DNA from: a virus
Strand: one strand, 5' to 3'
Length of the DNA stretch: 56,743 nucleotides
Virus record (IMG/VR): IMGVR_UViG_3300037484_000539
Coordinates: 1-56,743 of that record
Part shown: positions 14,501 to 36,076 of the stretch, one piece after another
Numbering within the stretch: position 1 is the first letter of the stretch
Layout of the letters: each line of letters opens with the position of its first letter
Position numbers and translations under genes: made by a program
Notes under the pieces: generated by a model
Told to the model about the DNA's origin: nothing
What the model saw: the letters and a program-made list of their open reading frames with translations, nothing else
Databases searched by the model: none

Positions 14501-17500
14501 ATGCCACTCGATTTAGAGGAATTGTCCGATCTTGATCTGGAGCCGATTGAGGAAGAATCGGAAACTCCTCGTCTGGCGCAAAAGCAGGAACTTCCAGATA
14601 CCAAACCAGCAGTCACAATCGAGCAGACTACCTTTCGGCCACGCACGGCTTCATTGGAGGATACTCGTCCAGCATTCGATTTCGATGAACCTCTGGTCGC
14701 TCCCGAAGCTGTCCGGGCCGCAATGGAACTTGGGCAGGGAGGGATTTCGCGGGCCATCCCACTGCTTCCTGAGGGAATGCGGGAGACAGCGCAGGGCTTC
14801 AAGGAGGGAATTGAGGAGCAGGTGATTGGGCTTACCACGCCAAAATCAGTGGCGATGACCCCGATATTTGCAATTCCCTATGTTGGGCAGGGATTGGCCC
14901 TTGGAATGGGCGCTAAAGCCATAGGCGCTGGAGCAGGAACGGCCACAGGGGCGATTGAATCGGGAAACAGGAGAGAGTTAGGGACTGGACTGAGCGAAGT
15001 CACTGGCGGGGCGGCAATGGTGGCTGCTCCACTGTTACACGGCAGGGCAAAGGTCATTGATATTCCACCCGAAGTCCGAGCCACACTTCCCAAAGCATCC
15101 GCAGCAGTCGAACAAACAACCAAAGGAGCAGAAAGTGCCAAAACAATACGAAGCGATACGGGACAAGTGCGTGAAGAAGGGCGGCAAGCTGAAGTCGTGC
15201 AAGACAAAGGCGGCGAAAATCTACAACAGCCTGCACCCGAACAACCCAAACCCGTGGGCGCACGAGGCGGCGAAGAAGCCCAAGTATTACTGAAGCAGGA
15301 ACTTGCTGCTCCAGATGCGCAAGCTGCGCTCACAAAGCCTGTTGAGCAATTGCGTGTTGAATTAGAATCTAAAAACGCTGAGGCTGACGCACTTCCAAAA
15401 CCAGCCGCCGATGCGCCTATAGCTGACAAAATGGCGTACCTTACGGCCAAGAACAAACTCAAGGGAGAGGCCAGTTTTCTGAGGGAGGCTTTAGAATTGA
15501 AAAAGCAGGAGCGGGTCAAGCCATCTCAAAATGTTATCACGAAGGAAGCACAGCCTGAGCGAGTAGTGGTGCAACCTCCAGAAGATGTTGGTGGAGGAGA
15601 AATGACTCCGGGTTACGTTACGATCCAATCTAAAGGCAACGCACAATCTGGGCCACCCGAAGCATGGAAATCAGCAGGACACGATTTGCCTGAGTTTTCA
15701 AAGCTTCCCAAAGGAACTTATGGAATCAAAGAAGCAAGAGAGCTTGCCCAAAAAGCCCAAGCCCCTGAACTGGCAGCTGAAGGAGTGGGAGGAGTTCCTG
15801 AAAAGCTACCCGCCGCAGAAGCAGCTACTAAAACTGAACCAGTTAGTAGTGAATTAGTAGTTGAGTCTGCACCCGAACGCACTGCTATAGCGCCGGAAAC
15901 AATCAAAGCCGCTGCGGCCCGCAGTGAGGATGGAACGATTTACACCGGAAAATGGCACCCTGCTGCGTATGAAGAACTGATGCGAGCCAAGGGTCTGACC
16001 AAAGATCAGGTCATTGGCCAAATACAAAGCGGTCAGTTAGCTGATGGTTTTATTACGTCTAAAGGAAGATTTGTATCGCGCGAAGAGGCCGCTGTAATAG
16101 CGAAGGAACGCAACCAGTTCCGCCCTGACAAGGAAGGCGATATAGCATTTGCTGGGGGACTCAAGGGAATGGAAGCGGGGCCGGGAGTGGTAGCACCAAA
16201 GCCTGAACTCGCAGAAACGCAAGGTGCCATTGCCACATCCGGGGCACCCATGATGCCAGCTACACCCGCTGGCGTTCCTGCGAAGCCAGTCAAGCCCATT
16301 TCGGAAGTGATACGGGATTTGGCAAAGGGGTTGGACATGCCCATCCGCTTTGGTCGGCTTACCACCAGCAAGTACGCAGGCTACTTCAAAAAGAACCCCA
16401 ATCTCATAGGGGCCAAGTTTGCCAATGACATGCCAATTGTAGCGCATGAAACCGGGCACAAGCTGGATTCCATTTATCCTTTTACGAAAGACCCGGCCTT
16501 GCGGGCTGAATTGGATGCGCTGGGCGATCCTGCGATAGCAGGTTCCAGATCATCGTGGACGCCATCCAAATCCGGCGTTTACAAGCGCGGGGAGGGTTTT
16601 GCTGAATTCGTACGCCATTGGCTGACAGACCCCGCTGAAGCCAAACGTCTAGCGCCTGACACGTTTACCAAGTATGAGCAAATGCTGGATGCCAGCGAAG
16701 ACCTTGGGAATGTGATGCGGCAGGCACAATCCGATATTCAGCTTTGGCGCAACGCCCCACAGGAAGCGCGGCTGGATTCATTTATTTCCAGAAGCGATCC
16801 GAATGGAGCACGTTATCGGCTTCCCAACCTGATGCGTGACGTGGTGGATGATTTACACTTCCTGCGCATGGCGGTGGACGATGCGAAAGTTTCAGGGCCA
16901 CTGCCACCCAGCCAGAATCCATACCAGCTTGCCCGCGCTTTACGGGGAAGCTACGGCATGGCGGACAGTTTCGTGCGTAATGGCGTGGCCGACTTCAAGA
17001 CCCGTGAAGTAACGCCGGGAACCGGCCTTCAGGACGCTTTGAAACCCGTGTCGGGCAGGATTGATGAGTTTCGCAGGTGGATAGTGGCTAAACGCGCCCA
17101 GGAGCTTGCAGCCAACGGTAAGGAGACGGGCCTTAACCCCAACGACGTGGATTTTGTGGCTCAAAAGTATGATACTGACCCCGCTTTTCAGGAAGCCTTC
17201 ACCAAGGTCAAGACATGGAATGATGCCCTGCTCAAGTATGCTGGTGATTCCGGGCTTATTGCTCCTGAGTCCCTGAAGGCCATGCGGGACATGAATCAGG
17301 ACTACGTTCCGTTTCATCGGGTATTCGAGGTGGGGGCTGGAGAATCAGCGGCCCAATCAGGTGGTGCCGGACGAGGATTGAATGTGGGAAAGCCCGGCAG
17401 CCTGAAGCGTTTATCAGGCTCGCAACGGGACATTGTTGACCCATTGGAAACGATGGTCAAAAACGCCTACACGTTGATTACTGCCGCTGAGAAAAACGCC

Positions 17501-19273
17501 ATCAATACCGCCGTGGCCGATCTGGCACCCAAAACCGACATGGGCCGCTGGGTGGAAAAGGTGGCTGCTCCAAAGGAGATGGTGAAGGTTGAACTGGAGC
17601 GCATTAAAAAACAACTGGAGGATGCCGGGGCAGACCTGACGGGGGTTCCAGACGATCTGGTAATGGGGTTTTTCAAGCCTTCTGGCCGTGCTCCATTCGG
17701 CGAAAACATCATCAAAGTAAATCGCGCCGGGAAACAGGAATTCTACCGGCTGGACAAGGATTTGTTCGACACCTTTCATGCGCTGGACATGGAATCGAGC
17801 AGCCGATTGCTCAAGCTATTGTCGGCTCCCGCCCAATTGTTGCGCGCAGGCGTGACGCTGACTCCTGATTTTGCGCTGTCCAATGCGATGAGGGACACGG
17901 TAAGCGCGGCGGTGGTGTCCAAGTACGGCACATACCCATTCGTAAACACCGTGAAGGGAATGGCGGCGCTTTTGAACAATCCCAAGCTGGTGTCGGAATG
18001 GGCGGCTTCAGGTGGAAAACAGTCGGTGGAGGCAAATTATTTTGACCGGGCAAAGGTGCAGAAGTTTTTGTCAGAACGGATTACCAAAGACCTGACACCA
18101 GCGGAGCGGGCCACCATTCTGGCAAAGAGTCCATTGACCGCATTGCGAATGTTCACCGGAACACTGGAGGAGGCGACCCGTATTGGTGAGTATCAGAACG
18201 CGCTAAAAAAGCTGACCGATGAGGGAATGCCAATTGGAGACGCCCGAAGACAGGCGGCATTTGAAGCCCGTGATTTGCAGGACTTTGCCAAGGGTGGCGC
18301 GCAGACCAAAATAGTCCGCAGTCTGGCGGCATTTTGGAATGCTGGATTGCAGGGAAATGTGCGTTTGGCGCAAGCCTTCCGGCAGCGCCCATTTCAAACG
18401 ACGTTGAAGGGTTTGGCATTTATTACGCTCCCCAAACTTCTGGAGCAGGCGGTGAACTGGAACGACGAGGATTATTGGGATCGCCCGCAGTGGGAGAGGG
18501 ACTTATTTTTTATGATTCCCCGTGGAAAGGATGCGAATGGGCATACCAGATTCCTGCGCATCCCAACCCCGTTTGAGGTGGGTGTTATTTTTGGAACAGT
18601 GCCGGGTAGAATTTTGCAAACCGTACGGGAGAAAGACCCAAAGGCTTTGGAATCCCTACCTCGCGTGATGCTTCAGCAAACGATCCCCAACCCAACGCCA
18701 CAATCAGTCCTGACTTTGCTGGAGGTGAATGCCGGAAAGGGGGGTTACTCATTCTTCAGGGGCAGGCCAATTGTGCCGGAAGCCATGAAAAATGCGCCGC
18801 CAGAAATGCAGTTCACATCACAGAACAGCCTGACCGCAAAGAAGGTGGGTAAGTTGCTCAATCTGTCACCAGCCAAGGTGGATTACGCGATTGGAGGATT
18901 GACAGGCGGGGTTGGAAGGCAACTGACTCATCAAGTGTCGGATCGCGCAATATCGGCCATGACGGGTGATGAACGCACGGCCCAAAGCACGATGCCGGGA
19001 GCAAGGTTTGTGGCGACCCCGGCAGGAACCCAAAGCGATGCTGTGGAAAAGTTCTATCAGGCGTTGGAGGAGGCGGTAGCGGACAGGGAGAGAGTGAAGG
19101 CCGGAGAAGCATCCAGGGGACAGGCCAGGTTTGCACGGCGGCTGGAGGCTGTGGCGGACAAGTTATCTGAATTGCGCAAGAAGGCGAAGTTGGAGAAAGA
19201 CGAAAAGCAAAGACAGTCCATCAATCTGGAGATTTCAGCCAGAGCCAGGGACGCGTTGAAACAAATCAAGTAA
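14501..19273 (+). CDS. Giant 1590-aa multidomain protein with a zincin-type HExxH motif; putative virion-borne/ejected polyvalent protein
   Basis: Uninterrupted 4.8-kb ORF. HETGH at 16445-16459, followed by GEGFAEF. The N-terminal third is low-complexity and rich in Ala, Pro and Glu. Confidence 0.6.
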   Translation: MPLDLEELSDLDLEPIEEESETPRLAQKQELPDTKPAVTIEQTTFRPRTASLEDTRPAFDFDEPLVAPEAVRAAMELGQGGISRAIPLLPEGMRETAQGFKEGIEEQVIGLTTPKSVAMTPIFAIPYVGQGLALGMGAKAIGAGAGTATGAIESGNRRELGTGLSEVTGGAAMVAAPLLHGRAKVIDIPPEVRATLPKASAAVEQTTKGAESAKTIRSDTGQVREEGRQAEVVQDKGGENLQQPAPEQPKPVGARGGEEAQVLLKQELAAPDAQAALTKPVEQLRVELESKNAEADALPKPAADAPIADKMAYLTAKNKLKGEASFLREALELKKQERVKPSQNVITKEAQPERVVVQPPEDVGGGEMTPGYVTIQSKGNAQSGPPEAWKSAGHDLPEFSKLPKGTYGIKEARELAQKAQAPELAAEGVGGVPEKLPAAEAATKTEPVSSELVVESAPERTAIAPETIKAAAARSEDGTIYTGKWHPAAYEELMRAKGLTKDQVIGQIQSGQLADGFITSKGRFVSREEAAVIAKERNQFRPDKEGDIAFAGGLKGMEAGPGVVAPKPELAETQGAIATSGAPMMPATPAGVPAKPVKPISEVIRDLAKGLDMPIRFGRLTTSKYAGYFKKNPNLIGAKFANDMPIVAHETGHKLDSIYPFTKDPALRAELDALGDPAIAGSRSSWTPSKSGVYKRGEGFAEFVRHWLTDPAEAKRLAPDTFTKYEQMLDASEDLGNVMRQAQSDIQLWRNAPQEARLDSFISRSDPNGARYRLPNLMRDVVDDLHFLRMAVDDAKVSGPLPPSQNPYQLARALRGSYGMADSFVRNGVADFKTREVTPGTGLQDALKPVSGRIDEFRRWIVAKRAQELAANGKETGLNPNDVDFVAQKYDTDPAFQEAFTKVKTWNDALLKYAGDSGLIAPESLKAMRDMNQDYVPFHRVFEVGAGESAAQSGGAGRGLNVGKPGSLKRLSGSQRDIVDPLETMVKNAYTLITAAEKNAINTAVADLAPKTDMGRWVEKVAAPKEMVKVELERIKKQLEDAGADLTGVPDDLVMGFFKPSGRAPFGENIIKVNRAGKQEFYRLDKDLFDTFHALDMESSSRLLKLLSAPAQLLRAGVTLTPDFALSNAMRDTVSAAVVSKYGTYPFVNTVKGMAALLNNPKLVSEWAASGGKQSVEANYFDRAKVQKFLSERITKDLTPAERATILAKSPLTALRMFTGTLEEATRIGEYQNALKKLTDEGMPIGDARRQAAFEARDLQDFAKGGAQTKIVRSLAAFWNAGLQGNVRLAQAFRQRPFQTTLKGLAFITLPKLLEQAVNWNDEDYWDRPQWERDLFFMIPRGKDANGHTRFLRIPTPFEVGVIFGTVPGRILQTVREKDPKALESLPRVMLQQTIPNPTPQSVLTLLEVNAGKGGYSFFRGRPIVPEAMKNAPPEMQFTSQNSLTAKKVGKLLNLSPAKVDYAIGGLTGGVGRQLTHQVSDRAISAMTGDERTAQSTMPGARFVATPAGTQSDAVEKFYQALEEAVADRERVKAGEASRGQARFARRLEAVADKLSELRKKAKLEKDEKQRQSINLEISARARDALKQIK

Positions 19274-19275: not shown

Positions 19276-19959
19276 ATGCCACTAAAATCCAGAAACGACT
19301 TCCCCCCCAACGGTTTTACTTTCTACCAAGCCGAGACAGGCTGGACTTCCCCACCCTATATTGGCTTTTCCCCCACCGTGGATGAAATCATAAAACACCG
19401 TCAGTCCAACCCAAGATTCAAGCTGTCCACAAACAGGGGTGAAGTGGAGGTGGAGTTGGAGAACTACACCATTGCGAGATTGAAATCCCAGTACGGCGAC
19501 AAGGCCGACCAATGGATAACGGGCAATGCCCCGCCAACGGTTTTTACACCGCCCCTCCCGCGTCGCCGCGTGGTGGGGGCAGTGGGTGCTGTGGCAATCG
19601 TGCATAAGGCAGTGGCGGGGGTTGGACTTGTCCTTGATTTCCTTGGCCCCAAGCTCAAACCCGTTGATCGTCCATTGGCGGAAAAACGAGGTTCCATTTG
19701 TGCCGTATGTCCCCTAAACCAGCCCGGTACAGCTTTGGAGCAGGCCGGGGGAAAAGCCCTTCACTTATTGCTCGAATACAAGGCCGATCAAAAGATGGAG
19801 ACGATTTGGGATGACCGGCTGCTCTGGTGCCATGCTTGCGGGTGTTCGCTCAAATTAAAGGTGCATGTGGGGCTGGACTACATCCTGAGCAGGCTCAAAC
19901 CGGAGGAAGCAGCGGCGCTTGATCCAAAATGCTGGATTAGGAACCACGATTCCACTTGA
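19276..19959 (+). CDS. Hypothetical protein with a C-terminal Cys cluster
   Basis: 227 aa with CAVC...CHACGC. Its TGA stop lies inside the TTGAC of the next box. Confidence 0.55.
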   Translation: MPLKSRNDFPPNGFTFYQAETGWTSPPYIGFSPTVDEIIKHRQSNPRFKLSTNRGEVEVELENYTIARLKSQYGDKADQWITGNAPPTVFTPPLPRRRVVGAVGAVAIVHKAVAGVGLVLDFLGPKLKPVDRPLAEKRGSICAVCPLNQPGTALEQAGGKALHLLLEYKADQKMETIWDDRLLWCHACGCSLKLKVHVGLDYILSRLKPEEAAALDPKCWIRNHDST

Positions 19960-19960
19960 C
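19950..19960 (+). promoter_or_regulatory. TTCCACTTGAC box (exact)
   Basis: ATG 19992 lies 31 nt downstream. No convincing SD. Confidence 0.7.
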
Positions 19961-19991
19961 CCATATTGCTGTCCTTGGTTAGGTGTAGTGC

Positions 19992-20564
19992 ATGGTTAAT
20001 GACAAGCCTTGTTCCGTATTCTTTGTGATAGACGTGGAATCTGTCGGTCTGCACGGCGAGGGCTTTGCCGTCGCGGGCGGCGTCTATCTCACCAACGGCT
20101 CTGCTCTGTGGGAGTTCCGACTGGCGTGTCCGATAGATGAGTGTGCTGGTGACGAAGATGACCGCAAATGGGTGAAAGACAACATCCCGGCCATCGATGA
20201 AACCCACCGCTCACCAAAAGCCATGCGCGACGAGTTCTGGAAACAGTGGATGCGGGCGAAGAAGAACGGCGCAGTAATGGCTGCTGACTGCCAATGGCCG
20301 GTCGAAGCCGGATTCGTGAAAGCCTGCATTGCCGATGACCCTGCGCGTAAATGGGAAGGCCCGTATCCTCTCCATGAAATCGCAAGCTACCTCGCCGCCG
20401 CTGGACTAGACCCAATGGCAAAATACCCGCGCATTCCGAGCGAGATGCCAATGCACGACCCACTCGCTGACGCGAGGCAATCGGCTCGACTACTATCCGA
20501 TGCGCTCGCGAGAATGGGGAACGACAAGCTGAGGCACGGCGGCGAAATTATCAAATGCTCGTAG
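19992..20564 (+). CDS. DEDDh (DnaQ-like) 3'-5' exonuclease
   Basis: Exo I FFVIDVES; Exo III HDPLADA (H-x4-D); the length is right for the fold. Confidence 0.7.
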   Translation: MVNDKPCSVFFVIDVESVGLHGEGFAVAGGVYLTNGSALWEFRLACPIDECAGDEDDRKWVKDNIPAIDETHRSPKAMRDEFWKQWMRAKKNGAVMAADCQWPVEAGFVKACIADDPARKWEGPYPLHEIASYLAAAGLDPMAKYPRIPSEMPMHDPLADARQSARLLSDALARMGNDKLRHGGEIIKCS

Positions 20565-22012
20565 TAACACCTTGCCATGTCGGGGACATAGACGCCCTAA
20601 GACAACTGCTTCTTTGGATTCAGAAGCTTGGTGCTTGTAAAGCCCACCAACTGCTTCTTGTGGCGGATGCTGGAACCCCCATAGACAAGGTGGTGGAGGT
20701 AATGGAACTGGCAGGGCAAGTCTTTGGGGAGGTGAGGCTTGTCACCAATCCTACTTCGGTCATTGGGTGGCCGGACGGCTGTTATTCCCTTTTCAACACA
20801 GCCACGAAATACATTTCAGAGCACTGGCCCCAGCCCTTCCTGATTCTGGAACCAGATGCGATCCCCCTTAAACCCGGCTGGCTGGATCAAATCGAGCAAG
20901 CCTACCAGAAATCAGGAACCCCCTTCATGGGATGTATTTACGACGCACCGGGATTCGGTTCCCACGGAAAGTGCATGAGCGGGATAGCAGTGTATCCCCC
21001 AAATGCCGTCACACTCCTTCCTCCATGCCCATTGCCAGTTCCGTGGGACATGTACGGGGCGGACGTAATGACGGGGAATGGTTCCCACACACCCCTCATC
21101 AAACACTTCTTTGGGCAGCACAAACTTCCCCCGACATTTGTGCATGAGAAAAGCGAGTTAGCGCCCATAAATGCTTTCACGCTGGACTGGCTTGGGAGTG
21201 AGTGTGTGCTGTTCCATCGCGACAAGACCCACTCATTGATTCCACTGCTGGCCAGGAAGCTGGGTATTGAATGGCAGCACGCGATTAAGCATGAGCCGGT
21301 GCCAGCCAGCGAAAGGCTCGTGCTGGTTTTAGGGTTTTGCTGGAATGACCAGTATCTCGCCTTGAAAAATCTTTACTGGATGATTCAACTGGGTGGCCGG
21401 GTTGATGGCACGATTGTTTTACAAACTGATATGTCTGTGTCGAAGGAGATTTTCAATACCATTGTGAAGGTGGCGGGCGAAGCGTTTACCCATGTAGTTC
21501 CCAAGCGCCTACCCACTACTACAGTTGGCTGGCCACAGGGTTCCAATATGCTTTGGCAATCTGCTGGGAGGTTCATGGCTTCTTTACAGAAGCCGTGGAT
21601 TTGGAGCGAGCCGGATGCGGTGTTTGTGAAAGAGGGTTGGCTGGAACTATTATCGGATGAATATCTAAGGGCGGACAAACCTTTCATGGGCCACGTTGTC
21701 GGCGGGATGGGGCACATGAATGGGGTTGGTGTTTACCCCGCCGATGTTGGGCGGTTTGCGCCACATGCAATGACCTGCACCAACGCGGCATTTGACATGG
21801 TTTTGCACCCAGCCATCGCACCACATGTCCACAAGGCCAATCATTTGATTCGGCACTGTCGGGCAGCCGTTAATGGGTGTTGTTTGGATCAGCACGGCCA
21901 GCCGCCCGTTTTCAGGAGCGCCGCCGATTTAAGCATGGTGGGAGCCGATACTGTGCTGTTCCACCCAAGCAAAGATGGCTCCTTGATTGATCGGTTAAAC
22001 GAAAAATTATGA
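20555..22012 (+). CDS. Tandem-duplicated two-domain protein; possible glycosyl/nucleotidyl-transferase-like fold
   Basis: The two halves align. GWPDGCYS vs GWPQGSNM; EPDAIPLKPGWL..PFMG vs EPDAVFVKEGWL..PFMG; VLFHRDKTHSLI vs VLFHPSKDGSLI. Confidence 0.45.
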   Translation: MLVVTPCHVGDIDALRQLLLWIQKLGACKAHQLLLVADAGTPIDKVVEVMELAGQVFGEVRLVTNPTSVIGWPDGCYSLFNTATKYISEHWPQPFLILEPDAIPLKPGWLDQIEQAYQKSGTPFMGCIYDAPGFGSHGKCMSGIAVYPPNAVTLLPPCPLPVPWDMYGADVMTGNGSHTPLIKHFFGQHKLPPTFVHEKSELAPINAFTLDWLGSECVLFHRDKTHSLIPLLARKLGIEWQHAIKHEPVPASERLVLVLGFCWNDQYLALKNLYWMIQLGGRVDGTIVLQTDMSVSKEIFNTIVKVAGEAFTHVVPKRLPTTTVGWPQGSNMLWQSAGRFMASLQKPWIWSEPDAVFVKEGWLELLSDEYLRADKPFMGHVVGGMGHMNGVGVYPADVGRFAPHAMTCTNAAFDMVLHPAIAPHVHKANHLIRHCRAAVNGCCLDQHGQPPVFRSAADLSMVGADTVLFHPSKDGSLIDRLNEKL

Positions 22013-23376
22013 ATGCGGAAATTTTGATTGTTACTTTCAAACGGGACTTCAGGTATTTGAAGTTTTGCCTCGAATCAATCCGGCGTTTCGCGACGGGCTT
22101 CAGCGGCATAACGCTGGTCGTGCCTGATTATGATGCAGCACAGGCCGTGTTGGAATTTTCGGGTGTCACCATCAAAAGCGGCGCGGAATGGCCGGATAAT
22201 CCGATGCTCTGGCATGAGTGGGTGATTATGAATGCTGACCAATGGTGCCCCAAGGCTGACTATGTTGTGCATCTGGATGCGGACTGCCTGGTGCGCGCTC
22301 CGGTGAGTCCAGATACATACATTCGTGATGGAAAGCCATATCTGCGTCACGAACCGTTTGCGGATGTGGCAACGCGTGAGCCGGGAGTGATGGAGTGGGA
22401 GCGGGTAACAAGGCTGTGCCTTCCCTTTGAGAACCTGCAAGAGACGATGAGGGCCATGCCGCTGGTGTATCATCGAAGCACTTACCCGCTAACACGCAAG
22501 GTGATGACGCAGAAAACAAAGCGTGATGCCGGGGAATACATCCGCTCCTGCAAGGGAATATACCCACAAGGCTTCTGTGAATTTGTGACGCTGGGAAATG
22601 TGGCCATGAATCTGGAGCGTGAAAAATACGAATGCGTGTTGCAGCTTGGGGACAAGGCCAGTCCGCCGACGAACATCATCCAATTTTGGGGGCATGGCGA
22701 TCCAGCCTTGGAGCAGACGATTTGGATGGATGGAATCAGCCAGATGGTTGTGCCGCAGAACGTCATAAATCAGGTTTTGGAACACAAGTCGCCTGCACTT
22801 ACCGGCAAACGTCCATGCCCGGAAAATATCAAGGTAATCGCCCATCGTGAACAGTTGGGCACTTGGCTTAACGAGCAGGGGATGCTGGGGGCTGGTGCGG
22901 AGATTGGCGTCATGCACGGCGGCTATTCTGAATCCGTTCTGAAAATCTGGAATGGCGAAAAATATTACATGGTGGACTTGTGGGGGAGACAAGACCCGCA
23001 GGTGTATCGGGAGCGCACGGATGACATTGATTACGAAGGCAAGTATCGCGATTGTGTTGCCATAGCGGAACGCTTTCCCATTGTGCAAATCATCAGGGAT
23101 TACTCTGTGGCGGCGGCAGGGCAGGTGCCGGACGGCTCCCTCGATTGGGTGTTCATCGACGCCAACCATTCCTATCGAACTGTCTTAGAAGACATGGATG
23201 CGTGGTTTCCAAAACTTAAACCGGGCGGCGTGTTTGCAGGACACGACTACGGTGACGATACGAACTACCCGCACTGGTGCGAGGTTAAATCAGCGGTGGA
23301 TCGATGGATGGGCGAACACAACATCGCCTTTCGCGTCACGGAATGCTCAAGCTGGTGGTCGATAAAGCCGTTATGA
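22009..23376 (+). CDS. Fusion of a GT-A-like (DxD) N-terminal domain and a class I SAM methyltransferase (Methyltransf_24/TylF-like) C-terminal domain
   Basis: N-terminal half: ILIVTFKRD...VVHLDADCLV. C-terminal half: GAEIGVMHGGYS...FIDANHSYRTVLEDMDAWFPKLKPGGVFAGHDY. Confidence 0.6.
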   Translation: MNAEILIVTFKRDFRYLKFCLESIRRFATGFSGITLVVPDYDAAQAVLEFSGVTIKSGAEWPDNPMLWHEWVIMNADQWCPKADYVVHLDADCLVRAPVSPDTYIRDGKPYLRHEPFADVATREPGVMEWERVTRLCLPFENLQETMRAMPLVYHRSTYPLTRKVMTQKTKRDAGEYIRSCKGIYPQGFCEFVTLGNVAMNLEREKYECVLQLGDKASPPTNIIQFWGHGDPALEQTIWMDGISQMVVPQNVINQVLEHKSPALTGKRPCPENIKVIAHREQLGTWLNEQGMLGAGAEIGVMHGGYSESVLKIWNGEKYYMVDLWGRQDPQVYRERTDDIDYEGKYRDCVAIAERFPIVQIIRDYSVAAAGQVPDGSLDWVFIDANHSYRTVLEDMDAWFPKLKPGGVFAGHDYGDDTNYPHWCEVKSAVDRWMGEHNIAFRVTECSSWWSIKPL

Positions 23377-24191
23377 AAATTGTAATCGTTGGCTCCAGCC
23401 GTGGCATAGGAAATCATCTCAAGAAGTATTTTCTGGATAATGGCCATGAAGTGTGGGGCATCAGCCGTTCCGCGCAGCAGCCATCGGAAAGATTTATCCC
23501 AATCATGGGAAACGCATGTGTGGAAATGGAATACAATCAGGTGCCAGCCATTGACGCCCTTATTTATTGCGCTGGCTCTCAGATGCCCATTGGAGCGGCT
23601 ATGACCATTGAGCCGCACGAATGGTTGATGGGAATACGCGACAACCTGTTTGGGGCGTTCAATGTGGTTCATACGTTTTTCAGCAGGCTTCATGGGGATG
23701 GAAGGGTTGGAAAGATCGTGCTGTTCAGCGGCGGTGGGGCGACAAATGCCAGACCCAACCTGAGCGCGTATTCATGCGCCAAAACAGCCATTGTCAGGCT
23801 GGTGGAAACACTCTCAGAAGAATGGGTGGACGTGGACATTGATATTAACGCCATTGCTCCGGGGGCGGTATGTACTGACATGACCCGGCAAATACTGGAT
23901 TTGGGGGTGTCAATCACGGGGGTAAAAGAAGCACAGGATGCTGTAAGGCTTGCCAAACAGGACAATACCAAAGCGCTGCAAGATATTGCTGGCTGCATTG
24001 ACTGGCTGATAAGCGACAAATCAGACGGGATAACAGGCAAGTTGATTTCCGCCAAATGGGATGATTGGAAAACCAGCTCTGGAATTAAACTGATAAGGCA
24101 GCGGGAAAACATGGTCTTGAGAAGGGTTCCAGATGGCAGGCTGAAAGCGTACGTGCCAACACCTGAGGAAGAGGGCAGGATGGCGCAATGA
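23373..24191 (+). CDS. Short-chain dehydrogenase/reductase (classical SDR)
   Basis: ATG 23373 overlaps the upstream stop as ATGA. VGSSRGIG glycine motif and the YSCAK (YxxxK) catalytic motif. Confidence 0.75.
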   Translation: MKIVIVGSSRGIGNHLKKYFLDNGHEVWGISRSAQQPSERFIPIMGNACVEMEYNQVPAIDALIYCAGSQMPIGAAMTIEPHEWLMGIRDNLFGAFNVVHTFFSRLHGDGRVGKIVLFSGGGATNARPNLSAYSCAKTAIVRLVETLSEEWVDVDIDINAIAPGAVCTDMTRQILDLGVSITGVKEAQDAVRLAKQDNTKALQDIAGCIDWLISDKSDGITGKLISAKWDDWKTSSGIKLIRQRENMVLRRVPDGRLKAYVPTPEEEGRMAQ

Positions 24192-24712
24192 CTCCTGAAA
24201 TGACCGTGGCTGTGCAGTATCAAAGTCACCTTCCCGCATTGCTGGCGTGTATTGCTGTGACGGATGGGCCAGTGCTGGAGCTTGGTGTGGGGCATTTCTC
24301 CACGCCACACTTGCACGCCCTTTGCGGGGCGATGGGGCGCTTGCTGGGTTCGTGGGAGGACAACCGTGAATGGTTTGAGGAATTCCGACTCAAATACGAA
24401 TCCAAAAAACATTGGTTTCAGTGCGGATCGTACTTGGAAGCGGTAAAAGTCGGGCCGGACAACCGGGGAAGATTTGGCGTGGCGTTTATTGATAATTCTC
24501 CAGGAGGAGAAGGCCGTTCAGTGCCATTTCGGGCGCTGATTGAGATAAGTGAATTCGTTGTTGTCCACGACGCGCAGAAAGACGCGGAAAATTTTCAGGC
24601 GGTGGAGATGATGTTGGAGGGACTGCACTGGCACCTTTGCACGGGCTACTTCCCCCATACGCTTGTGGCCAGCAAAACAAGACAGATACCGGAAGTTCTT
24701 TTAGGAATGTAG
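24188..24712 (+). CDS. Methyltransferase-fold-like protein (weak)
   Basis: LELGVGHFST (motif I-like) and VAFIDNSPG...VVVHD. ATGA overlap upstream. Confidence 0.4.
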   Translation: MTPEMTVAVQYQSHLPALLACIAVTDGPVLELGVGHFSTPHLHALCGAMGRLLGSWEDNREWFEEFRLKYESKKHWFQCGSYLEAVKVGPDNRGRFGVAFIDNSPGGEGRSVPFRALIEISEFVVVHDAQKDAENFQAVEMMLEGLHWHLCTGYFPHTLVASKTRQIPEVLLGM

Positions 24713-24743
24713 TTGACGACCTAAGCGGCTTAGGAACATTATT

Positions 24744-25130
24744 ATGAATGCCATCAGTCGATACATGTCAGCTATCGGTAAAAAAGGCGGTAGCGTCAAA
24801 AGTGAGAGAAAAGCGAATGCGTCCAGAAACAATGGCCGACTTGCTGTGCAATCCCGGACTGGCTGTGATGATAAGGAACAGATGAAAATTCATTCGTGCT
24901 CTACTTGTTATCATTGGGCTGGCCCGGAAGCGTTACTGGGGAAAGGTGTGCGCGGTCGTGTCTGCGTGCATGACGATTTGTATATGCACGCTCCAACATC
25001 CTTCCAAAAGGACGGGGCTATTGGTGTGAATTGCGATTTTTCCTGTAATCAGGATACGCCCCCGAAATACGATCATATTTTAACCGGCCCGGATTTCTGC
25101 TGTGTTCATCATGTGGAAAAAGAATCGTGA
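24744..25130 (+). CDS. Cys/His-rich hypothetical protein
   Basis: 128 aa. Basic N-terminus, then CSTCYH, CVHDD, CDFSC and CCVHH. Confidence 0.5.
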   Translation: MNAISRYMSAIGKKGGSVKSERKANASRNNGRLAVQSRTGCDDKEQMKIHSCSTCYHWAGPEALLGKGVRGRVCVHDDLYMHAPTSFQKDGAIGVNCDFSCNQDTPPKYDHILTGPDFCCVHHVEKES

Positions 25131-25769
25131 ATGATATTTGTATCCAGCGCCCGCCCGATGGGAAACGATCCGCAGTATGATCGCAATCAACTTGCTGCTA
25201 AGGCATCGTGGGACAAGTGCGCTAGCAAAATAGTTTATTTCAATGATATTCAGCCCCAGCTTCGTAGTCCCAAGACGTGGTTTGTGGATGCAGAACCATA
25301 CCCACGCATCCTTGATATACTGGAGTTCTGCATGTCTCAGGAGGAATGGTGTGCGATCCTGAACGCGGACATTGTGGTTGGCCCAAACTTCCCTGTTGTA
25401 GAGGCGAAACTGCGTTCCAAAAATGCCATGTGTGCCTCAAGCTGGCGTTACAACTTCGATCCTGCGATTGGCATTTCCAGTGGTGTTCACAACGACAATG
25501 GGATTGATTTCTTTGCGGCCACACCGGAGGTCTGGGGAAGGGCGTACGAGTTATGTCAGGAGGAGCTAAGGCTGGGAAGTGGGTACTGGGATGGGTGGAT
25601 GCTGAGTGTGTTTGGCACGTTTTTCATGCTGGGATTCTGGAATCTCACTCCGGCTAGGGTGATTTTCCACCCCAACCATTCAGGGCGCATTCATGGCCCA
25701 CATTTCGACATTACCCGAATCAAGATTTACCAGTGGCCGGTAATGCCAAGCCCAACCCTGATAACTTGA
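25131..25769 (+). CDS. GT-A-like nucleotide-sugar transferase candidate
   Basis: AILNADIVV (DxD-like) and NGIDFFAATPEVW. Starts one nt after the upstream stop. Confidence 0.4.
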   Translation: MIFVSSARPMGNDPQYDRNQLAAKASWDKCASKIVYFNDIQPQLRSPKTWFVDAEPYPRILDILEFCMSQEEWCAILNADIVVGPNFPVVEAKLRSKNAMCASSWRYNFDPAIGISSGVHNDNGIDFFAATPEVWGRAYELCQEELRLGSGYWDGWMLSVFGTFFMLGFWNLTPARVIFHPNHSGRIHGPHFDITRIKIYQWPVMPSPTLIT

Positions 25770-25772
25770 TGC

Positions 25773-25783
25773 CTCCACTTGAC
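25773..25783 (+). promoter_or_regulatory. CTCCACTTGAC box (one mismatch, at position 1)
   Basis: ATG 25814 lies 30 nt downstream. No SD. Confidence 0.65.
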
Positions 25784-25813
25784 GCAACCAATCTGAAATG
25801 ATTTCATCCATCA

Positions 25814-26077
25814 ATGAAAGCGATAACAAATTCAGAACTGTCAATAATTCGCAGGGCAGAGTGGGTGGTGGGATTGTTTTCAGATATGCGTGCGGCGCGT
25901 GCGGCGGTTAAGTCAGGGGCGCTGTTTCCAGGCAGTGGGCTGATAAGGTTTTATGGCCATGCAACTCACAGGCGGGTGCTCGCAATCATAGGAATGAAAC
26001 CAACCAAACAAAAGAGGCCCACATCGACCAATTTCATAGCGGCAATAGAATTGTCGAAAACGTTTTGGAGGAAATGA
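25814..26077 (+). CDS. Hypothetical protein, 87 aa
   Basis: First ORF after the box; precedes the putative portal gene. Confidence 0.55.
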   Translation: MKAITNSELSIIRRAEWVVGLFSDMRAARAAVKSGALFPGSGLIRFYGHATHRRVLAIIGMKPTKQKRPTSTNFIAAIELSKTFWRK

Positions 26078-26109
26078 TTTACTTCCACTTCCGCCCAAGT
26101 GCGCTATAG

Positions 26110-28512
26110 ATGGGGGCGTTGAAGATAAAAGACGCGAGCAAGGTTGAGGAGCTTTGTTGGGCCATGAGGCTCGCCGACCAGCCAAGGTCGGTTGACCGAG
26201 CCTTGATAGACACGCTTTTCAATGGATTCCCTCCCTACACCCAGCATCAGGTTCAGCAGAACAACATCGACGTAAATGTAAATTTTCTTGAACCTACCAA
26301 ACTTGCACAGGACGCCCGCTCCCAGTACGAGACGGCTTACTTCACCCCAAACCAATATTTTCAAGTCCGTGTAGATCGTGGGCCTTCCCATAAGCGGGAC
26401 GAGTGGAGCGAGATAATTACCACTCAATTACGGCGTGCGATGAAGGATGGCCAGTCCGCACAGGTGTATCGAAGACAGAAGTACAGTATTTTCTCCCAGC
26501 TTGTTTTACACGGTTCCGGCCCATTGGTCTGGGGAGACAGGGAGAAGTGGGCACCCACCATGCAGGCGATGGCGGATGTTCTCATACCCAGCCGGACGTT
26601 GCTGACCCTAGAAAACCTGACTCACTTCTCGATCTACCGACGTTACACCGCCGCCGATCTGGCTAGAAAGATAAACGGCCCCAACGTGGACAGGGGTTGG
26701 AAGAAGGAGATTGCCAATAGCTGCATCAGATGGGCGGTAAAGGAATCAGGACAAGCTATTCCCGGTGATGACATGACGTGGAATCAGGAACGGGTGGTGG
26801 CTGACATGAAGGCCAACAGCTTGTTTTATGCTTCTGATGCTGTCCCTACGATCAACTGTTTTGACTTCTACTACTTTGACGAGGAATCCAAAGACGCTGG
26901 ATGGAAGCGAAAGATAGTGTTGGACTCCCCCAGTATAAGTGAAGCCGGAGCCACCAAAGCATCCGTCAAAGAAGCTAAAAACATATTGGAGAAACGAGGC
27001 CAGTACCTCTATGACAGTGGTAGGAACTATGCACCCAAACTCAGCGAGATTATCAACTTCCAGTTCGCGGACGGCTCCGTGGTCGCGCCGAACCGTTACG
27101 ATAGCATTCGATCCCTGGGGTTCCTGCTTTACGCCGTATGTCACTTACAAAACAGGTTACGGTGCTCGCTTACTGCGGCTTCCTTTGAAGCTGCCATGCA
27201 GTATTTCCGAGTTCATAGTCCTGAGGATGTACAACGAGCGATAAGGATCAACCTTGGGAACAAATGCGTCATTCCTGACAATGTTCAATTTGTCGGGGCA
27301 CAGGAGAGATGGAAAGTGGATGCCCAGCTTATCCAGACTGTGATGGGTCTAAACCGCCAGAGCATGGCTGATAATTCCACGGCTTATACCCGAAACTTTG
27401 GACTCAGTGAAAATGAGCCTCGTGAGAAAACAGCCACGCAGATCAACGCGGAAGTAAATGCTGCTACGGCGATGGTCGGGGCGATGCTGGAAACCTCCTA
27501 CGGGGATGCCAAGTTTGAGTACATGGAGGAGTGCCGGAGATTCTGCATTCCCAACAGCAAAGACCCCGATGTAAGAAAATTCAGGCTTAGATGTTTGAAG
27601 GATGGAGTACCCGAAGAAATCCTGAACCCTGAATGCTGGGAGATTTCCGTGGAGCGGGTGATGGGTTCTGGAAATCGGGAGTTAGCCCAAGCCCAAGCGC
27701 AATTGATAATGAGTCAGTACCATTTACTGGAACCGGATGCGCAACGTATTGCTCTGAGGAAGTTCATGTTCGCTGTTACAAACGATGCGGGTGTGACGGA
27801 ATTGTTGGTGCCTCAGAAGCCAAACATGGTTACGGACTCAATCCACGATGCGCAAATGTCCGCTGCTACGATGTTGCTTGGTCTTCCAATGGGGTTGAAG
27901 CAGGGGGTAAGTCACGGAGAATACGCGAGCGTGTTGCTTGGCACCATGAACGTCCAGATTTCCAAAATTGACGGACGTGGAGGGGTTGCAACCGCCGAAG
28001 AAATTACAGGTTTGATGAGTCTGGCCGGTCAGGATGTTGGCGGTCAGCCGTTGATGATGGGAGATCAGCCCGGAAATGGCGCATTTTTCCATATTCAAAT
28101 TCTCAGTCAGGACGCGGGTTCAAAAGAAATTGTCAAACAGCTTGGTGACACCTTAGCTAAGCTGATGAACAGCGTCAGGGCTTACGTTCAAAGATTAGAG
28201 GAGCAGCAGGAGTCGGCACAACAAAACGGAAATGGGCAGCCACCAATAGACCCGGCTTCAGCGGCGAAGATCAAAGGCCAGCTTTTGGCTGCGGAAGTTA
28301 AAGCGGAGAGCATGAGGGAGGCCCATTCCCAAAGGTCTGAGCAGCGCGCCCAAATTCATGCGCAAAATTTGTCTGAACGCCAAGCGGATGCAGAGATGAA
28401 AAACGCACAAGAGGTAAGGAAGACACAGGTGGACGTGGCTGCCAAAGACCTTGTAACGCAGGGGGAAATTCAGCGGATGGCTGCCAAGCCTGACAAACCA
28501 TCCGCTGAATAA
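26110..28512 (+). CDS. Putative portal protein, 800 aa
   Basis: Based on size, position upstream of the scaffold/capsid genes, and a Q/A/E-rich helical C-terminal tail like the P22-type portal barrel. No search was run. Confidence 0.55.
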   Translation: MGALKIKDASKVEELCWAMRLADQPRSVDRALIDTLFNGFPPYTQHQVQQNNIDVNVNFLEPTKLAQDARSQYETAYFTPNQYFQVRVDRGPSHKRDEWSEIITTQLRRAMKDGQSAQVYRRQKYSIFSQLVLHGSGPLVWGDREKWAPTMQAMADVLIPSRTLLTLENLTHFSIYRRYTAADLARKINGPNVDRGWKKEIANSCIRWAVKESGQAIPGDDMTWNQERVVADMKANSLFYASDAVPTINCFDFYYFDEESKDAGWKRKIVLDSPSISEAGATKASVKEAKNILEKRGQYLYDSGRNYAPKLSEIINFQFADGSVVAPNRYDSIRSLGFLLYAVCHLQNRLRCSLTAASFEAAMQYFRVHSPEDVQRAIRINLGNKCVIPDNVQFVGAQERWKVDAQLIQTVMGLNRQSMADNSTAYTRNFGLSENEPREKTATQINAEVNAATAMVGAMLETSYGDAKFEYMEECRRFCIPNSKDPDVRKFRLRCLKDGVPEEILNPECWEISVERVMGSGNRELAQAQAQLIMSQYHLLEPDAQRIALRKFMFAVTNDAGVTELLVPQKPNMVTDSIHDAQMSAATMLLGLPMGLKQGVSHGEYASVLLGTMNVQISKIDGRGGVATAEEITGLMSLAGQDVGGQPLMMGDQPGNGAFFHIQILSQDAGSKEIVKQLGDTLAKLMNSVRAYVQRLEEQQESAQQNGNGQPPIDPASAAKIKGQLLAAEVKAESMREAHSQRSEQRAQIHAQNLSERQADAEMKNAQEVRKTQVDVAAKDLVTQGEIQRMAAKPDKPSAE

Positions 28513-30664: not shown

Positions 30665-31123
30665 ATGATTGAAATTTCCAAATCCTCCACTGCGGATACT
30701 AGAACCTGCGATTTCGCCAACACGCCGAAGAATGTTCTGCTTTCGTCCAGCCTACAGCACATCGGCGACGTGGTAAAAGCTCTAGCCTTCTTCTCTTCCA
30801 AAATCACTGAAGCTGCTGGAGAACACGACTACGATAAGCTTACCTCGATAGACTGGTTTCATGCCGACTTCGTGACTGGCTTCAAACAAACCGGATGGTG
30901 GGATAATCACCGCAAGATTCACCGGCACCACTTGGACAAGGAGGATGGTGTTCCTGCCGATGTGAACCTGCTTGACGTGATTGAACATATCTCTGATTGT
31001 GTGATGGCGGGAATGGCCCGTAGTGGCAGCGTTTACGAATTAAAGTTGTCGGATGAACTGCTTCAGCGAGCTTTTCAGAACACCGTAAAATTGTTAAAGG
31101 AACAAGTAGTAGTAAAACCATGA
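30665..31123 (+). CDS. Hypothetical His-rich protein, 152 aa
   Basis: ORF containing WWDNHRKIHRHHLDKED. Confidence 0.55.
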   Translation: MIEISKSSTADTRTCDFANTPKNVLLSSSLQHIGDVVKALAFFSSKITEAAGEHDYDKLTSIDWFHADFVTGFKQTGWWDNHRKIHRHHLDKEDGVPADVNLLDVIEHISDCVMAGMARSGSVYELKLSDELLQRAFQNTVKLLKEQVVVKP

Positions 31124-31386
31124 CCGCCAAGGAGCGATTTTTAGCAACCCCCGCCGCCAAATCCGTAGCCTCCATGCTGGCCAGCAAGGAATTCGAGACA
31201 GCTTTGGACGTGGCCATTCTGGAAGCCATGCAGGCACTTGGAACCGCTCAGGACTCAGAAAGCGCAGCCGCAAGGCATTGGAGATTGGAAGGGGTTGCAC
31301 TGCTCGCCAGAACTCTGGTAAAAGTGGCTACTCCAGAGGCACAGCCTGTCACGGAACAGTTTGGACACTTGAAAGGGAATGTGTGA
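31120..31386 (+). CDS. Hypothetical protein, 88 aa
   Basis: ORF with an ATGA overlap upstream. Confidence 0.55.
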   Translation: MTAKERFLATPAAKSVASMLASKEFETALDVAILEAMQALGTAQDSESAAARHWRLEGVALLARTLVKVATPEAQPVTEQFGHLKGNV

Positions 31387-31571
31387 AGCCCACGGTGGAA
31401 AATTCGACCTTGCAGGAATTGCAGCTTTTGAAGCGCCAGCTTCAGTCGGCCATTGAAATCGAGCAGTCCCAACAGATGAAGCAAATGACTGAAAAGGAAG
31501 TGCGTGAGCACGTTGAGAAATATGGCCACGGAGCTTTTCTTATCGGGGATTTCGTAATAAAACGCAGATAA
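31383..31571 (+). CDS. Hypothetical coiled-coil protein, 62 aa
   Basis: GTG 31383 overlaps the upstream stop as GTGA (ORF 31278..31571). Confidence 0.45.
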   Translation: MKPTVENSTLQELQLLKRQLQSAIEIEQSQQMKQMTEKEVREHVEKYGHGAFLIGDFVIKRR

Positions 31572-31574
31572 CTT

Positions 31575-32867: not shown

Positions 32868-32888
32868 CCCGGAGGGAACCGGGTAGCC

Positions 32889-35225: not shown

Positions 35226-35226
35226 G

Positions 35227-36075: not shown

Positions 36076-36076
36076 A

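Follow-up and report, generated by a model that had tools for sequence, protein, structure and literature searches.

The seven-gene operon of an uncultivated 56.6-kb phage genome is one filling of a hypervariable island that lies between two conserved genes, g0 and p800, in viral contigs of ~55 kb that come from metagenomes and form a large family. Its centrepiece is g2, a protein whose structural model has a GT-A glycosyltransferase fold in both halves, outside the curated glycosyltransferase sequence families. The window, meaning the whole stretch of 56,743 nucleotides that was analysed, is complete, with a 127-bp terminal overlap closing its ends. A first-pass annotation had described the operon as a self-contained sugar/methyl-modification cassette; the domain assignments support the sugar and methyl part of this description, but "self-contained" fails, as the cassette is only one of the fillings found at this site. 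We read the cassette, tentatively, as building a methylated glycan in the host cytoplasm on virion proteins, a reading that is plausible though somewhat short of probable.

Table 1. Features of the cassette and its flanks (window coordinates).
Feature	Coordinates	Strand	Description
g0	19276..19959	+	Conserved 227-aa protein; hydrophobic stretch at residues 98-120, CxxC...CxxC; left anchor of island
Box TCCACTTGAC	19951..19960	+	Promoter-like, contains TTGAC; 31 nt upstream of g1 ATG
g1	19992..20564	+	190 aa; DEDDh-like motifs D14-x-E16, ADC...E105, H155-x4-D160; probable 3'-5' exonuclease
g2	20555..22012	+	485 aa; tandem GT-A glycosyltransferase (predicted); domain A ~20555-21289, domain B ~21290-22012
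g3, N-terminal domain	22009..22863	+	DUF6492 family, probably GT-A-like; invariant H88-x-D90-x-D92
g3, C-terminal domain	22900..23250	+	Methyltransf_24 (TylF/CmcI-like) SAM-dependent methyltransferase; ORF end 23376
g4	23373..24191	+	Classical SDR oxidoreductase; GSSRGIG, YSCAK; start revised from 23304
g5	24188..24712	+	Small class-I O-methyltransferase-like protein; LELGVGHFSTP, D102, D128
g6	24744..25130	+	128-aa orphan; basic N-terminus, 8 Cys, 7 His
g7	25131..25769	+	GT-A-fold protein (predicted), new sequence family; invariant N78, D80, R106, D126, D154, H180, H183, R186
Box TCCACTTGAC	25774..25783	+	Opens next transcription unit: 87-aa ORF at 25814, then 800-aa gene
p800	26110..28512	+	Conserved, portal-sized 800-aa protein; right anchor of island

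The seven tightly packed plus-strand reading frames spanning 19992-25769 are all present and, as had been proposed, are bounded by two exact TCCACTTGAC boxes, with no copy between them. Exact copies number 10 across the window, and with one mismatch there are 14 matches against 3.6 expected, a count reached by none of 100 shuffles. Genes g1 and g2 overlap by 10 nt, and g2 and g3, like g4 and g5, by 4 nt; g5 and g6 are separated by 31 nt, and the ATG of g7 directly abuts the g6 stop codon. The formal g4 frame opens at 23304, but translation more likely begins at the ATG at 23373 (MKIVIVGSSRGIG), which overlaps g3 by 4 nt (ATGA). That the genes are real is indicated by many homologues for g1, g2, g3, g5, and g7 and by strong Pfam matches for g4; the coding status of g6 is the least certain of the seven, since it has no homologue and a GC3 of 0.46 against 0.56-0.63 in neighbouring genes. 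Membrane segments are missing from all seven products (19-residue hydropathy maximum <=1.56). All motifs quoted in the first-pass annotation were found, namely VVHLDADCLV and FIDANHSY...GGVFAGHDY in g3, the two g4 motifs of Table 1, and ILNADIVV and GIDFFA in g7.

The g2 product had been described as two homologous halves, and the halves do align to each other (27% identity, E = 1e-22); the annotation had left the protein without a function and missed the glycosyltransferase call, which emerged from the structural check that it had itself proposed (AlphaFold and Foldseek). The AF2 model (pLDDT 92.8) matches LH3 (9e-11), LARGE1, PmHS2, COLGALT1, and K4CP in Foldseek, nearly all of the top 50 PDB matches are GT-A enzymes, and viral multi-domain GT-A proteins are matched in BFVD. 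The acidic motif is ExD, not DxD, and is invariant in both domains (E99-P-D101 and E352-P-D354 in 44 sequences); its position after the fourth strand is read from the DSSP string of the model only. Homologues in metagenomes number more than 268. Neither Pfam, NCBIfam nor PHROG gave a match to g2, and none of the 120 homologues listed carries a precomputed Pfam domain.

For g7, the suggestion of a GT-A-like protein was borne out by the same structural check, the model (pLDDT 96.5) predicting a GT-A fold plus an acidic motif. Its Foldseek matches (E = 1e-5 to 1e-4) include the WrtF fucosyltransferase (1.5e-5), mannosylglycerate synthase, alpha3GalT, and KfiA, and GDP-mannose pyrophosphorylase and RmlA-type sugar nucleotidyltransferases score almost equally. 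This likeness to nucleotidyltransferases and the putative status of the glycosyltransferase role of the g3 N-terminal domain (g3N) were both counted against the virion reading. N78-A-D80 is invariant and a conserved S6/R8 loop follows strand 1; g7 has no Pfam or PDB sequence match. Three relatives (L065, L080, and L076) carry the g7 domain in one chain with a g2-like domain.

The annotation had seen g3 as a GT-A-like DxD domain joined to a Methyltransf_24 enzyme. Its methyltransferase half (g3C) stands, with a match to PF13578 of 59 bits against a cut-off of 26.3 (residues 298-414), while the other half is only probably GT-A-like: DUF6492 is matched by 36 of 40 g3N homologues (best 1.9e-7), GT2, GT6 or Stealth_CR2 weakly by just 1-4 of them, and hhalign against the g2 halves places the DxD on the ExD at non-significant E values of 0.07-0.19. 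The g3N profile gave no PDB sequence match. Homologues of g3C are fused to FkbM, DUF115/Maf, GT2, GT4, GT9, and GT34 domains, which points to a glycan context. The proposed second methyltransferase, g5, has no Pfam match alone; within its family Methyltransf_24 is matched by six of 10 members (3e-9) and Methyltransf_3 by two, and the family profile matches the PDB O-methyltransferases 6jcl (4.7e-6) and Rv1220c/5x7f (1.5e-5), in agreement with the proposal. Classification of g4 as a classical SDR is confirmed by both motifs and by adh_short (86 bits against 26.6); its PDB matches are generic, being FabG-like and gluconate-dehydrogenase-like.

The remaining two genes appear to be less closely tied to the glycan genes. 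The family of g1 comprises 922 representative clusters in the library. Forty-two members retain D14, E16, the ADC..E105 block, H155, and D160, a motif pattern that makes g1, earlier named a DEDDh exonuclease, a probable 3'-5' exonuclease; no Pfam or PDB sequence match was obtained from the 42 members or their profile, and a single member matches phrog_255 'exonuclease', weakly (E = 7e-4). In relatives g1 lies outside the glycan module. The Cys/His-rich composition noted for g6 is evident, but the protein is an orphan, with no Pfam, PHROG or NCBIfam match and no homologue in 165 related loci.

The left anchor g0 was found in 70 of 84 g2-anchored loci and in 38 of 46 p800-anchored loci; it has a max KD19 of 2.0 and no Pfam or PHROG match. 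Relatives of p800 are encoded by 277 viral contigs, and p800 has no informative PHROG or PDB match. Because searches did not show a structural role for the flanking 800-aa and 1590-aa proteins, the view that the cassette is embedded among virion genes is an assumption; in two conserved downstream proteins, no Ser/Thr-rich feature varies in step with the presence of the cassette. The tandem glycosyltransferase is found in about one relative in three, and some relatives have no island at all. Relatives lacking g2 hold at the same site Methyltransf_24 (10), DUF5672 (4), and Glyco_tranf_2_4 (4), together with GT2, GT9, GT21, TylF, RmlD, epimerase, cytidylyltransferase, and polysaccharide pyruvyltransferase. 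The WrtF match of g7 and the GT9, RmlD, and pyruvyltransferase of relatives represent classic O-antigen/LPS enzymes and were also counted against the virion reading; enzymes of this type could just as well act on lipid-linked glycans of the host.

Where g2 is present, dozens of contigs share the order g0-g2-g3N-MT-...-g7-p800. The 84 g2-anchored related loci contain neither g1 nor g6 nor the SDR; the closest relative (L165) conserves g3-SDR-g5-g7 and lacks g6, its SDR orthologue being 53% identical and located after the g3 orthologue, and it is the one closer relative in which the SDR is kept. In L164, the glycosyltransferase genes diverge far faster than the flanks, with identities of 36% for g2 and 26% for g3N against 69% for p800 and 76% for g7.

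A Pfam scan of the 61 other reading frames of the genome returned 10 families. Dam is present, and the scan detected no integrase or other lysogeny gene and, as the annotation had maintained for the hydroxymethylase and kinase, no thymidylate-synthase-like hydroxymethylase, kinase, DNA polymerase or dNTP-pool enzyme; these negatives carry little weight, because the majority of the frames have no Pfam match. The phage family likewise has no recognised lysogeny genes. These absences from a complete genome were counted against both lysogenic conversion and DNA glycosylation of the T-even type. In favour of cytoplasmic assembly on a soluble acceptor were counted the lack of membrane segments and the lack of a flippase, Wzy or priming glycosyltransferase. 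The annotation had likewise remarked that flippase and polymerase are missing; no flippase or membrane protein is indeed found in the cassette, but the absence of a polymerase is true only in the Wzy sense, since some of the closest structural neighbours of g2 are bifunctional, single-chain glycan polymerases.

In the scheme that we infer for expression timing, activities, donor sugars, and acceptor, transcription would start at the phage-specific box at 19951 and yield one polycistronic message, from which soluble cytoplasmic enzymes drawing on host nucleotide-sugar and SAM pools would be made. Up to four GT-A-type domains (two in g2, the DUF6492 domain of g3, and g7) may add sugars stepwise or repetitively, the two Methyltransf_24-type enzymes (the g3 C-terminus and g5) would O-methylate them, and the SDR would oxidise or reduce one sugar position. 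The product would be a methylated oligo- or polysaccharide, assembled straight on its soluble acceptor; the likeliest acceptor is a surface protein of the virion, or several of them, a target for which chloroviruses and glycosylated mycobacteriophages offer precedents. Genes g1 and g6 would be passengers in the operon.

Two known systems resemble such a pathway. In PBCV-1, A064R unites a GT-A domain, a second glycosyltransferase, and a methyltransferase in one chain and A061L is a second methyltransferase, both being soluble and acting on the capsid glycan (PMC9614988). Like these, the cassette encodes viral enzymes that are predicted to be soluble and cytoplasmic: g3 joins a putative glycosyltransferase domain to a SAM methyltransferase, g5 adds a methyltransferase-like protein of its own, and g2 is a predicted multi-glycosyltransferase polypeptide; the glycosyltransferase domains similarly escape sequence annotation. 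It shows no detectable sequence homology to them and differs in its Methyltransf_24-type methyltransferase, its SDR, and its putative acceptor, and PBCV-1 has an algal host and 330 kb whereas the phage has a bacterial host and 56 kb. Mycobacteriophages of clusters F, O, and C2 are described as carrying an O-methyltransferase plus 2-3 glycosyltransferases for virion glycosylation (Freeman et al. 2023, via PMC11600133). They too are tailed phages with tandem glycosyltransferase genes beside an O-methyltransferase. However, tblastn of g2 and g7 against 50,697 phage records gave no match, these records contain no cultured relative, and for the methyltransferase domain the only matches among them are to end-of-genome methyltransferases of the cluster-K type, at about 31% identity; the cassette also adds the tandem GT-A protein, the DUF6492-methyltransferase fusion, and the SDR, and sits in a family-wide hypervariable island.

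Remodelling of the host envelope, which we regard as possible but unlikely, would have the soluble glycosyltransferases and methyltransferases act at the cytoplasmic membrane face on undecaprenyl-linked O-antigen, EPS or LPS-core intermediates of the host, whose transporters would export the altered glycan; the surface change could, for example, block superinfection or keep progeny from adsorbing to debris. The top structural match of g7, WrtF, is an O-polysaccharide fucosyltransferase of a soil bacterium, islands of relatives contain a GT9 heptosyltransferase, RmlD, polysaccharide pyruvyltransferase, and cytidylyltransferase, and the island is hypervariable, as surface-antigen loci typically are. 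This route is compatible with the lack of membrane segments, as cytoplasmic O-antigen glycosyltransferases are in many cases soluble or peripheral. Prophage seroconversion cassettes (GtrABC, or the D3-type Iap/Wzy-beta/O-acetylase) offer a parallel in phage-encoded change of a surface glycan by a variable set of modifying genes, but the cassette has no GtrA/B/C, bactoprenol glycosyltransferase, Wzx, Wzy or O-acetylase and encodes no membrane protein at all. Seroconversion, where known, is a trait of prophages, whereas the Pfam scan of the complete genome detected neither an integrase nor another lysogeny gene. Immediately downstream of the cassette, on its strand, comes a large block of conserved genes that look late.

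Much less is to be expected of the proposal that the GT-A enzymes glycosylate a modified phage base, with the sugar then methylated or reduced, in evasion of restriction or CRISPR; it is the least probable of the readings considered. Dam in the window, Mom in L001, and an N6/N4 methyltransferase within the L004 island speak for DNA modification in the family, PHROG labels the methyltransferase family 'DNA methyltransferase', and g2 and g7 weakly match in structure AvpGT, a nucleoside-glycosylating GT-A enzyme (PMC11959488). Glucosylation of T-even DNA by a hydroxymethylase and alpha/beta-glucosyltransferases shares with the cassette phage-encoded sugar transfer from a host UDP-sugar, but the ThyA-like dNMP hydroxymethylase and the 5-hmdU kinase were not detected by Pfam, and the methyltransferases, SDR, and multiple glycosyltransferase domains have no T-even counterpart. 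Moreover, T-even phage DNA glucosyltransferases are GT-B whereas those predicted here are GT-A. Four predicted glycosyltransferase domains, two O-methyltransferases, and the pyruvyltransferase, RmlD, and GT9 of sister islands suggest a glycan exceeding the complexity of known DNA modifications, and the glycan contexts of the Methyltransf_24 homologues argue in the same direction; the balance favours protein or the virion over DNA as target. Very unlikely, too, is that the genes are loose, unrelated morons, or serve to make a small molecule such as a free glycoside or a glycolipid, and are co-located because the g0/p800 junction tolerates insertions, with no single product. The junction does hold non-glycan cargo in relatives (Acb3 anti-CBASS, HNH, VRR-NUC, Cpn10, and radical SAM), conservation of the glycosyltransferase genes does not extend to g1, g6 or, in most relatives, g4, and g4 is a generic classical SDR. 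Against this stand the g2-g3N-MT-g7 order repeated across dozens of divergent contigs, the fusions joining g3N to a methyltransferase and g7 to a g2-like domain, and the overlapping start and stop codons.

If the cassette does act on virion proteins, g2 may contribute more than single transfers. LARGE1, the E. coli K4 chondroitin polymerase (K4CP), the Pasteurella heparosan synthase PmHS2, LH3, and COLGALT1 are bifunctional single-chain enzymes that, like g2, place two GT-A domains in one polypeptide; they are its top structural matches, and g2 retains an acidic motif of metal-binding type in each domain. Sequence identity between g2 and these enzymes is just 8-12%, however, and g2 is much shorter; its halves are paralogues whereas those of LARGE1, K4CP, and the like come from two different glycosyltransferase families, and unlike them it has single-domain relatives (244-300 aa); polymerase activity is a candidate function only. 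By this analogy, g2 could be a template-free glycan polymerase like LARGE1 or K4CP, making a repeating, O-methylated polysaccharide coat for the virion, with the g0/p800 island as a phage 'serotype locus', a suggestion that we consider clearly unlikely at present. If true, the g0/p800 island would diversify virion glycans across a large family of soil phages, as O-antigen loci do bacterial surfaces.

The seven open reading frames of the cassette lie on the plus strand at the coordinates proposed in the first-pass annotation, and the motifs quoted there were all found in the encoded products. Start and stop codons overlap by 10 nt at g1/g2 and by 4 nt at both g2/g3 and g4/g5, and the g3/g4 overlap is also 4 nt provided that g4 begins at the ATG giving MKIVIVGSSRGIG; g5 and g6 are separated by 31 nt, and the g7 ATG directly follows the g6 stop codon. 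The box TCCACTTGAC occurs exactly on either side of the cassette with zero copies in between, and the ten exact copies in the window are all intergenic and oriented toward downstream genes. Allowing one mismatch or fewer, 14 matches were found against 3.6 expected, a count reached by 0 shuffles. The box contains TTGAC and lies 12–31 nt upstream of the start codon across its copies (30–31 nt upstream of the ATG for g1 and for the next unit after the cassette); this spacing, with no conserved -10 element, suggests that leaders are very short or absent. Three tandem copies precede the plus-strand block 30665–38812. Since no convincing terminator was detected within the cassette region, the seven genes can fairly be described as a single transcription unit with a promoter-like box at each end; the box is not shared by relatives, so the operon boundaries receive no comparative support.

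Coordinates of the cassette, its surroundings and related features (in the window unless a locus is named)
Feature	Position	Strand	Remark
g0	19276-19959		left island anchor
g1	19992-20564	+	DEDDh-like
g2	20555-22012	+	tandem GT-A, predicted
g3	22009-23376	+	g3N (DUF6492) and g3C (Methyltransf_24)
g4	23304/23373-24191	+	SDR; two possible starts
g5	24188-24712	+	O-methyltransferase-like
g6	24744-25130	+	Cys/His orphan, putative
g7	25131-25769	+	GT-A-fold protein
p800	26110-28512		right island anchor
TCCACTTGAC, flanking cassette	19951, 25774	+	exact
TCCACTTGAC, tandem copies	30334, 30358, 30394	+	exact
TCCACTTGAC, other copies	6128, 9227	+	exact
TCCACTTGAC, other copies	4320, 46005, 53934	-	exact
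1590-aa protein	14501-19273		HETGH motif
Acidic ~100-aa protein	34929-35225		Ser/Asp/Glu-rich
TerL	48772-50601
g2-like/g7-like fusion	L065:9983-11581
g2-like/g7-like fusion	L080:9959-11602
g2-like/g7-like fusion	L076:15847-17331
Mom-like protein	L001:1460-1981
N6/N4 DNA methyltransferase	L004:5139-5939		inside island

With g2 as query, 159 contigs were retrieved from IMG/VR, many of them 53–60 kb long, in which the order g0 - g2 - g3N - methyltransferase - ... - g7 - p800 recurs. Across 84 g2-anchored loci, homologues of g2 were present in 81, g0 in 70, g3N in 50, g7 in 45, the methyltransferase in 43 and g5 in 15, while g1, g4 and g6 each had 0; in minimal islands (L076, L034), a single-domain g2 stands alone between g0 and p800. 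Relatives of the 800-aa p800 are encoded by at least 277 IMG/VR contigs, and anchoring on p800 gives a less biased sample than anchoring on g2: among the 46 loci whose upstream flank was complete, g0 was present in 38, g7 in 18, g2 in only 14 and g3N in 13, with a g0–p800 spacer ranging from 8 bp to more than 7 kb. Islands devoid of g2 still carry mostly glycan genes, including Methyltransf_24 (10), DUF5672 (4), Glyco_tranf_2_4 (4), GT2, GT9 and GT21, together with TylF, RmlD, epimerase, cytidylyltransferase and polysaccharide pyruvyltransferase. Unrelated cargo is also found in them, and the hotspot is a general accessory-gene site besides a glycan site; among islands upstream of p800 in L090–L155, this cargo comprises an Acb3 anti-CBASS gene, HNH and VRR-NUC nucleases, Cpn10 and four radical-SAM genes. 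The g0 product itself is a conserved 227-aa protein with a single TM-like hydrophobic stretch (residues 98–120) and two CxxC pairs, and it sits beside the island in most relatives regardless of island content.

Of two closer relatives, L165 keeps the order g3-SDR-g5-g7-p800 at identities of 58, 53, 44 and 41%. Comparison of the other, L164 (an SRR16123990 contig of 55,257 bp), with window positions 19276–28512 revealed mosaic divergence, in which identity is 69% for p800, 76% for g7 and 54% for g0 but only 36% for g2 and 26% for g3N, with HNH genes interspersed; such a pattern suggests that the glycosyltransferase genes have undergone recombination or diversifying selection. Because island content varies and relatives diverge in this way, the cassette, which had been described as self-contained, is not a fixed unit but one of the alleles that this hypervariable glycan island can take.

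The halves of the 485-aa g2 product are paralogous (27% identity, E = 1e-22), and a 44-sequence alignment shows an invariant ExD in each (E99/D101 and E352/D354). More than 268 metagenomic homologues exist, with a Pfam domain in none of the matches listed, and a scan with the g2 alignment found no relatives in bacterial and archaeal genome contigs. The AlphaFold model is confident (pLDDT 92.8), and its best PDB matches (E = 1e-10 to 1e-8) are all two-domain GT-A proteins, namely LH3 (lysyl hydroxylase), LARGE1, PmHS2 (heparosan synthase), COLGALT1 and K4CP (chondroitin polymerase); among viral proteins, the structurally closest are multi-domain GT-A proteins from giant viruses and from uncultured tailed phages, none exceeding 12% identity. 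Together, the paralogous halves, the ExD motifs, the model and its two-domain matches indicate that g2 is a tandem GT-A glycosyltransferase whose sequence family has no Pfam model. The tandem architecture and conservation of both acidic motifs would also allow a repeating polymer. No sequence family matched g7; its model adopts a GT-A fold (pLDDT 96.5) closest to WrtF, an O-polysaccharide fucosyltransferase of Rhizobium tropici (PMC12595478), followed by mannosylglycerate synthase, alpha-1,3-galactosyltransferase and KfiA, with sugar nucleotidyltransferases of the same superfamily scoring almost as high, which makes g7 a candidate for either a glycosyltransferase or a nucleotidyltransferase. 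In three contigs, proteins of 494–547 aa combine a g7-like domain with one g2-like GT-A domain, a "Rosetta-stone" arrangement that links the two families. Each of g2 and g7 defines a GT-A family for which Pfam has no model.

The C-terminus of g3 matches Methyltransf_24 far over the Pfam cut-off, and the fusion partners of its homologues are FkbM methyltransferases, DUF115/Maf domains, GT2, GT4, GT9 and GT34, which is a glycan rather than a DNA context. DUF6492 is matched by 36 of the 40 members of the N-terminal family, in which an H-x-D-x-D is invariant; alignment to the g2 halves places its DxD on the g2 ExD, although not significantly, and g3N is probably a GT-A domain. g4 is a generic classical SDR. 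By itself g5 has no Pfam match; however, six of ten family members match Methyltransf_24 and the family profile finds solved O-methyltransferases (E = 5e-6). This family-level evidence replaces a 99.4% hhalign link between g5 and g3C, which was an artefact of contaminated iterative profiles. The g1 family (922 representative clusters) conserves the textbook DEDDh pattern of DxE, D and H-x4-D; g1 has no Pfam or PDB match, and its sole PHROG "exonuclease" match is weak. The 128-aa g6 is an orphan of atypical codon composition and is missing from the closest relative (L165). Pairwise BLAST found no similarity among the cassette proteins, and profile–profile comparison gave no significant link of g3N or g7 to g2.

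Bases 1–127 are repeated exactly at 56617–56743, so the window is a complete genome, circular or circularly permuted, whose unit length is 56,616 bp; tRNA genes were not detected in it. A Pfam scan of 61 ORFs outside the cassette detected Laminin_G_3 (twice), He_PIG, DUF5977, a DnaA C-terminal domain, an RNA polymerase alpha CTD-like domain, Dam, a PolB-exo/RNase H-like nuclease and HTH domains, and no integrase, thymidylate-synthase-like hydroxymethylase, kinase or DNA polymerase. Directly upstream of g0 is a 1590-aa protein whose C-terminal 500 residues match PHROGs 9854, 18222 and 14770 (giant phage proteins). Searches of 50,697 phage records (blastn, tblastn) gave zero matches to the cassette, g2, g7 or p800 and, for g1, one weak match to a hypothetical protein; the matches of the SDR look like bacterial contamination and those of the methyltransferase are generic. 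Nor did the genome match any cultured phage.

Virion glycosylation by virus-encoded enzymes is established in giant algal viruses. In tailed phages, to our knowledge, it has been shown essentially only for some actinophages. No flippase, Wzy, priming GT or nucleotide-sugar synthesis gene is present in this allele, nor are membrane segments in g1–g7, and on these grounds the simplest reading is a cytoplasmic one. Soluble enzymes would draw on host NDP-sugars and SAM, methylating the glycan that they assemble on a soluble acceptor and oxidising or reducing it at one position. With up to four GT-type domains, the product could be at least a tetrasaccharide. Virion proteins are our favoured acceptor, tentatively, because the logic parallels that of the chlorovirus glycosylation enzymes PBCV-1 A064R/A061L (PMC9614988) and of mycobacteriophage GT plus O-methyltransferase cassettes (PMC11600133), because the genome lacks lysogeny genes and prerequisites for base glycosylation, and because diversification of the island resembles that of a surface-antigen locus. 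The cassette works like these known systems but is by sequence a member of none, and it lacks the defining features of Gtr-type seroconversion and T-even DNA glucosylation. It is set apart by its DUF6492-Methyltransf_24 fusion, its SDR and its location within a variable island that runs through the whole family.

No acceptor was identified among downstream proteins or by a gene-presence association test. Ser/Thr content and C-terminal tails of two conserved downstream proteins did not differ between loci with and without the cassette, and the association test recovered only cassette genes and a low-complexity acidic protein of ~100 aa, clustered in 7/14 cassette-bearing loci versus 0/25 others. 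Low complexity and phylogeny probably account for this association as an artefact of clustering, yet the protein could conceivably serve as a glycan acceptor; it lies downstream of a 453-aa conserved protein and recurs at ~15.6 kb in L087, L091, L096, L099 and L117. Searches demonstrated no structural role for the proteins flanking the cassette, and the identity of p800 as portal could not be established. These results and the negative search for an acceptor, together with the resemblance of several cassette enzymes to O-antigen enzymes, keep alive host-glycan remodelling, which we regard as unlikely. Unrelated morons or a small-molecule product are improbable, and DNA glycosylation slightly more so, given the missing base-glycosylation prerequisites and the glycan fusions of g3C homologues. 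The window encodes a Dam-family methyltransferase, and relatives encode a Mom-like protein and an N6/N4 methyltransferase; DNA modification in this phage family therefore goes through separate enzymes.

The large, entirely uncultivated phage family has a glycan-gene island that is fixed in position and hypervariable in composition, built around two GT-A sequence families outside Pfam coverage. Should the virion carry the glycan, diversification of phage "serotype" would be a widespread phenomenon in soil, with consequences for adsorption, for the stability of particles and for how immunogenic therapeutic phages are, and glycoengineering would gain new soluble GT and methyltransferase enzymes as well as tandem-GT ones. 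Should the host envelope or DNA be the target instead, the island would represent a new route for either.
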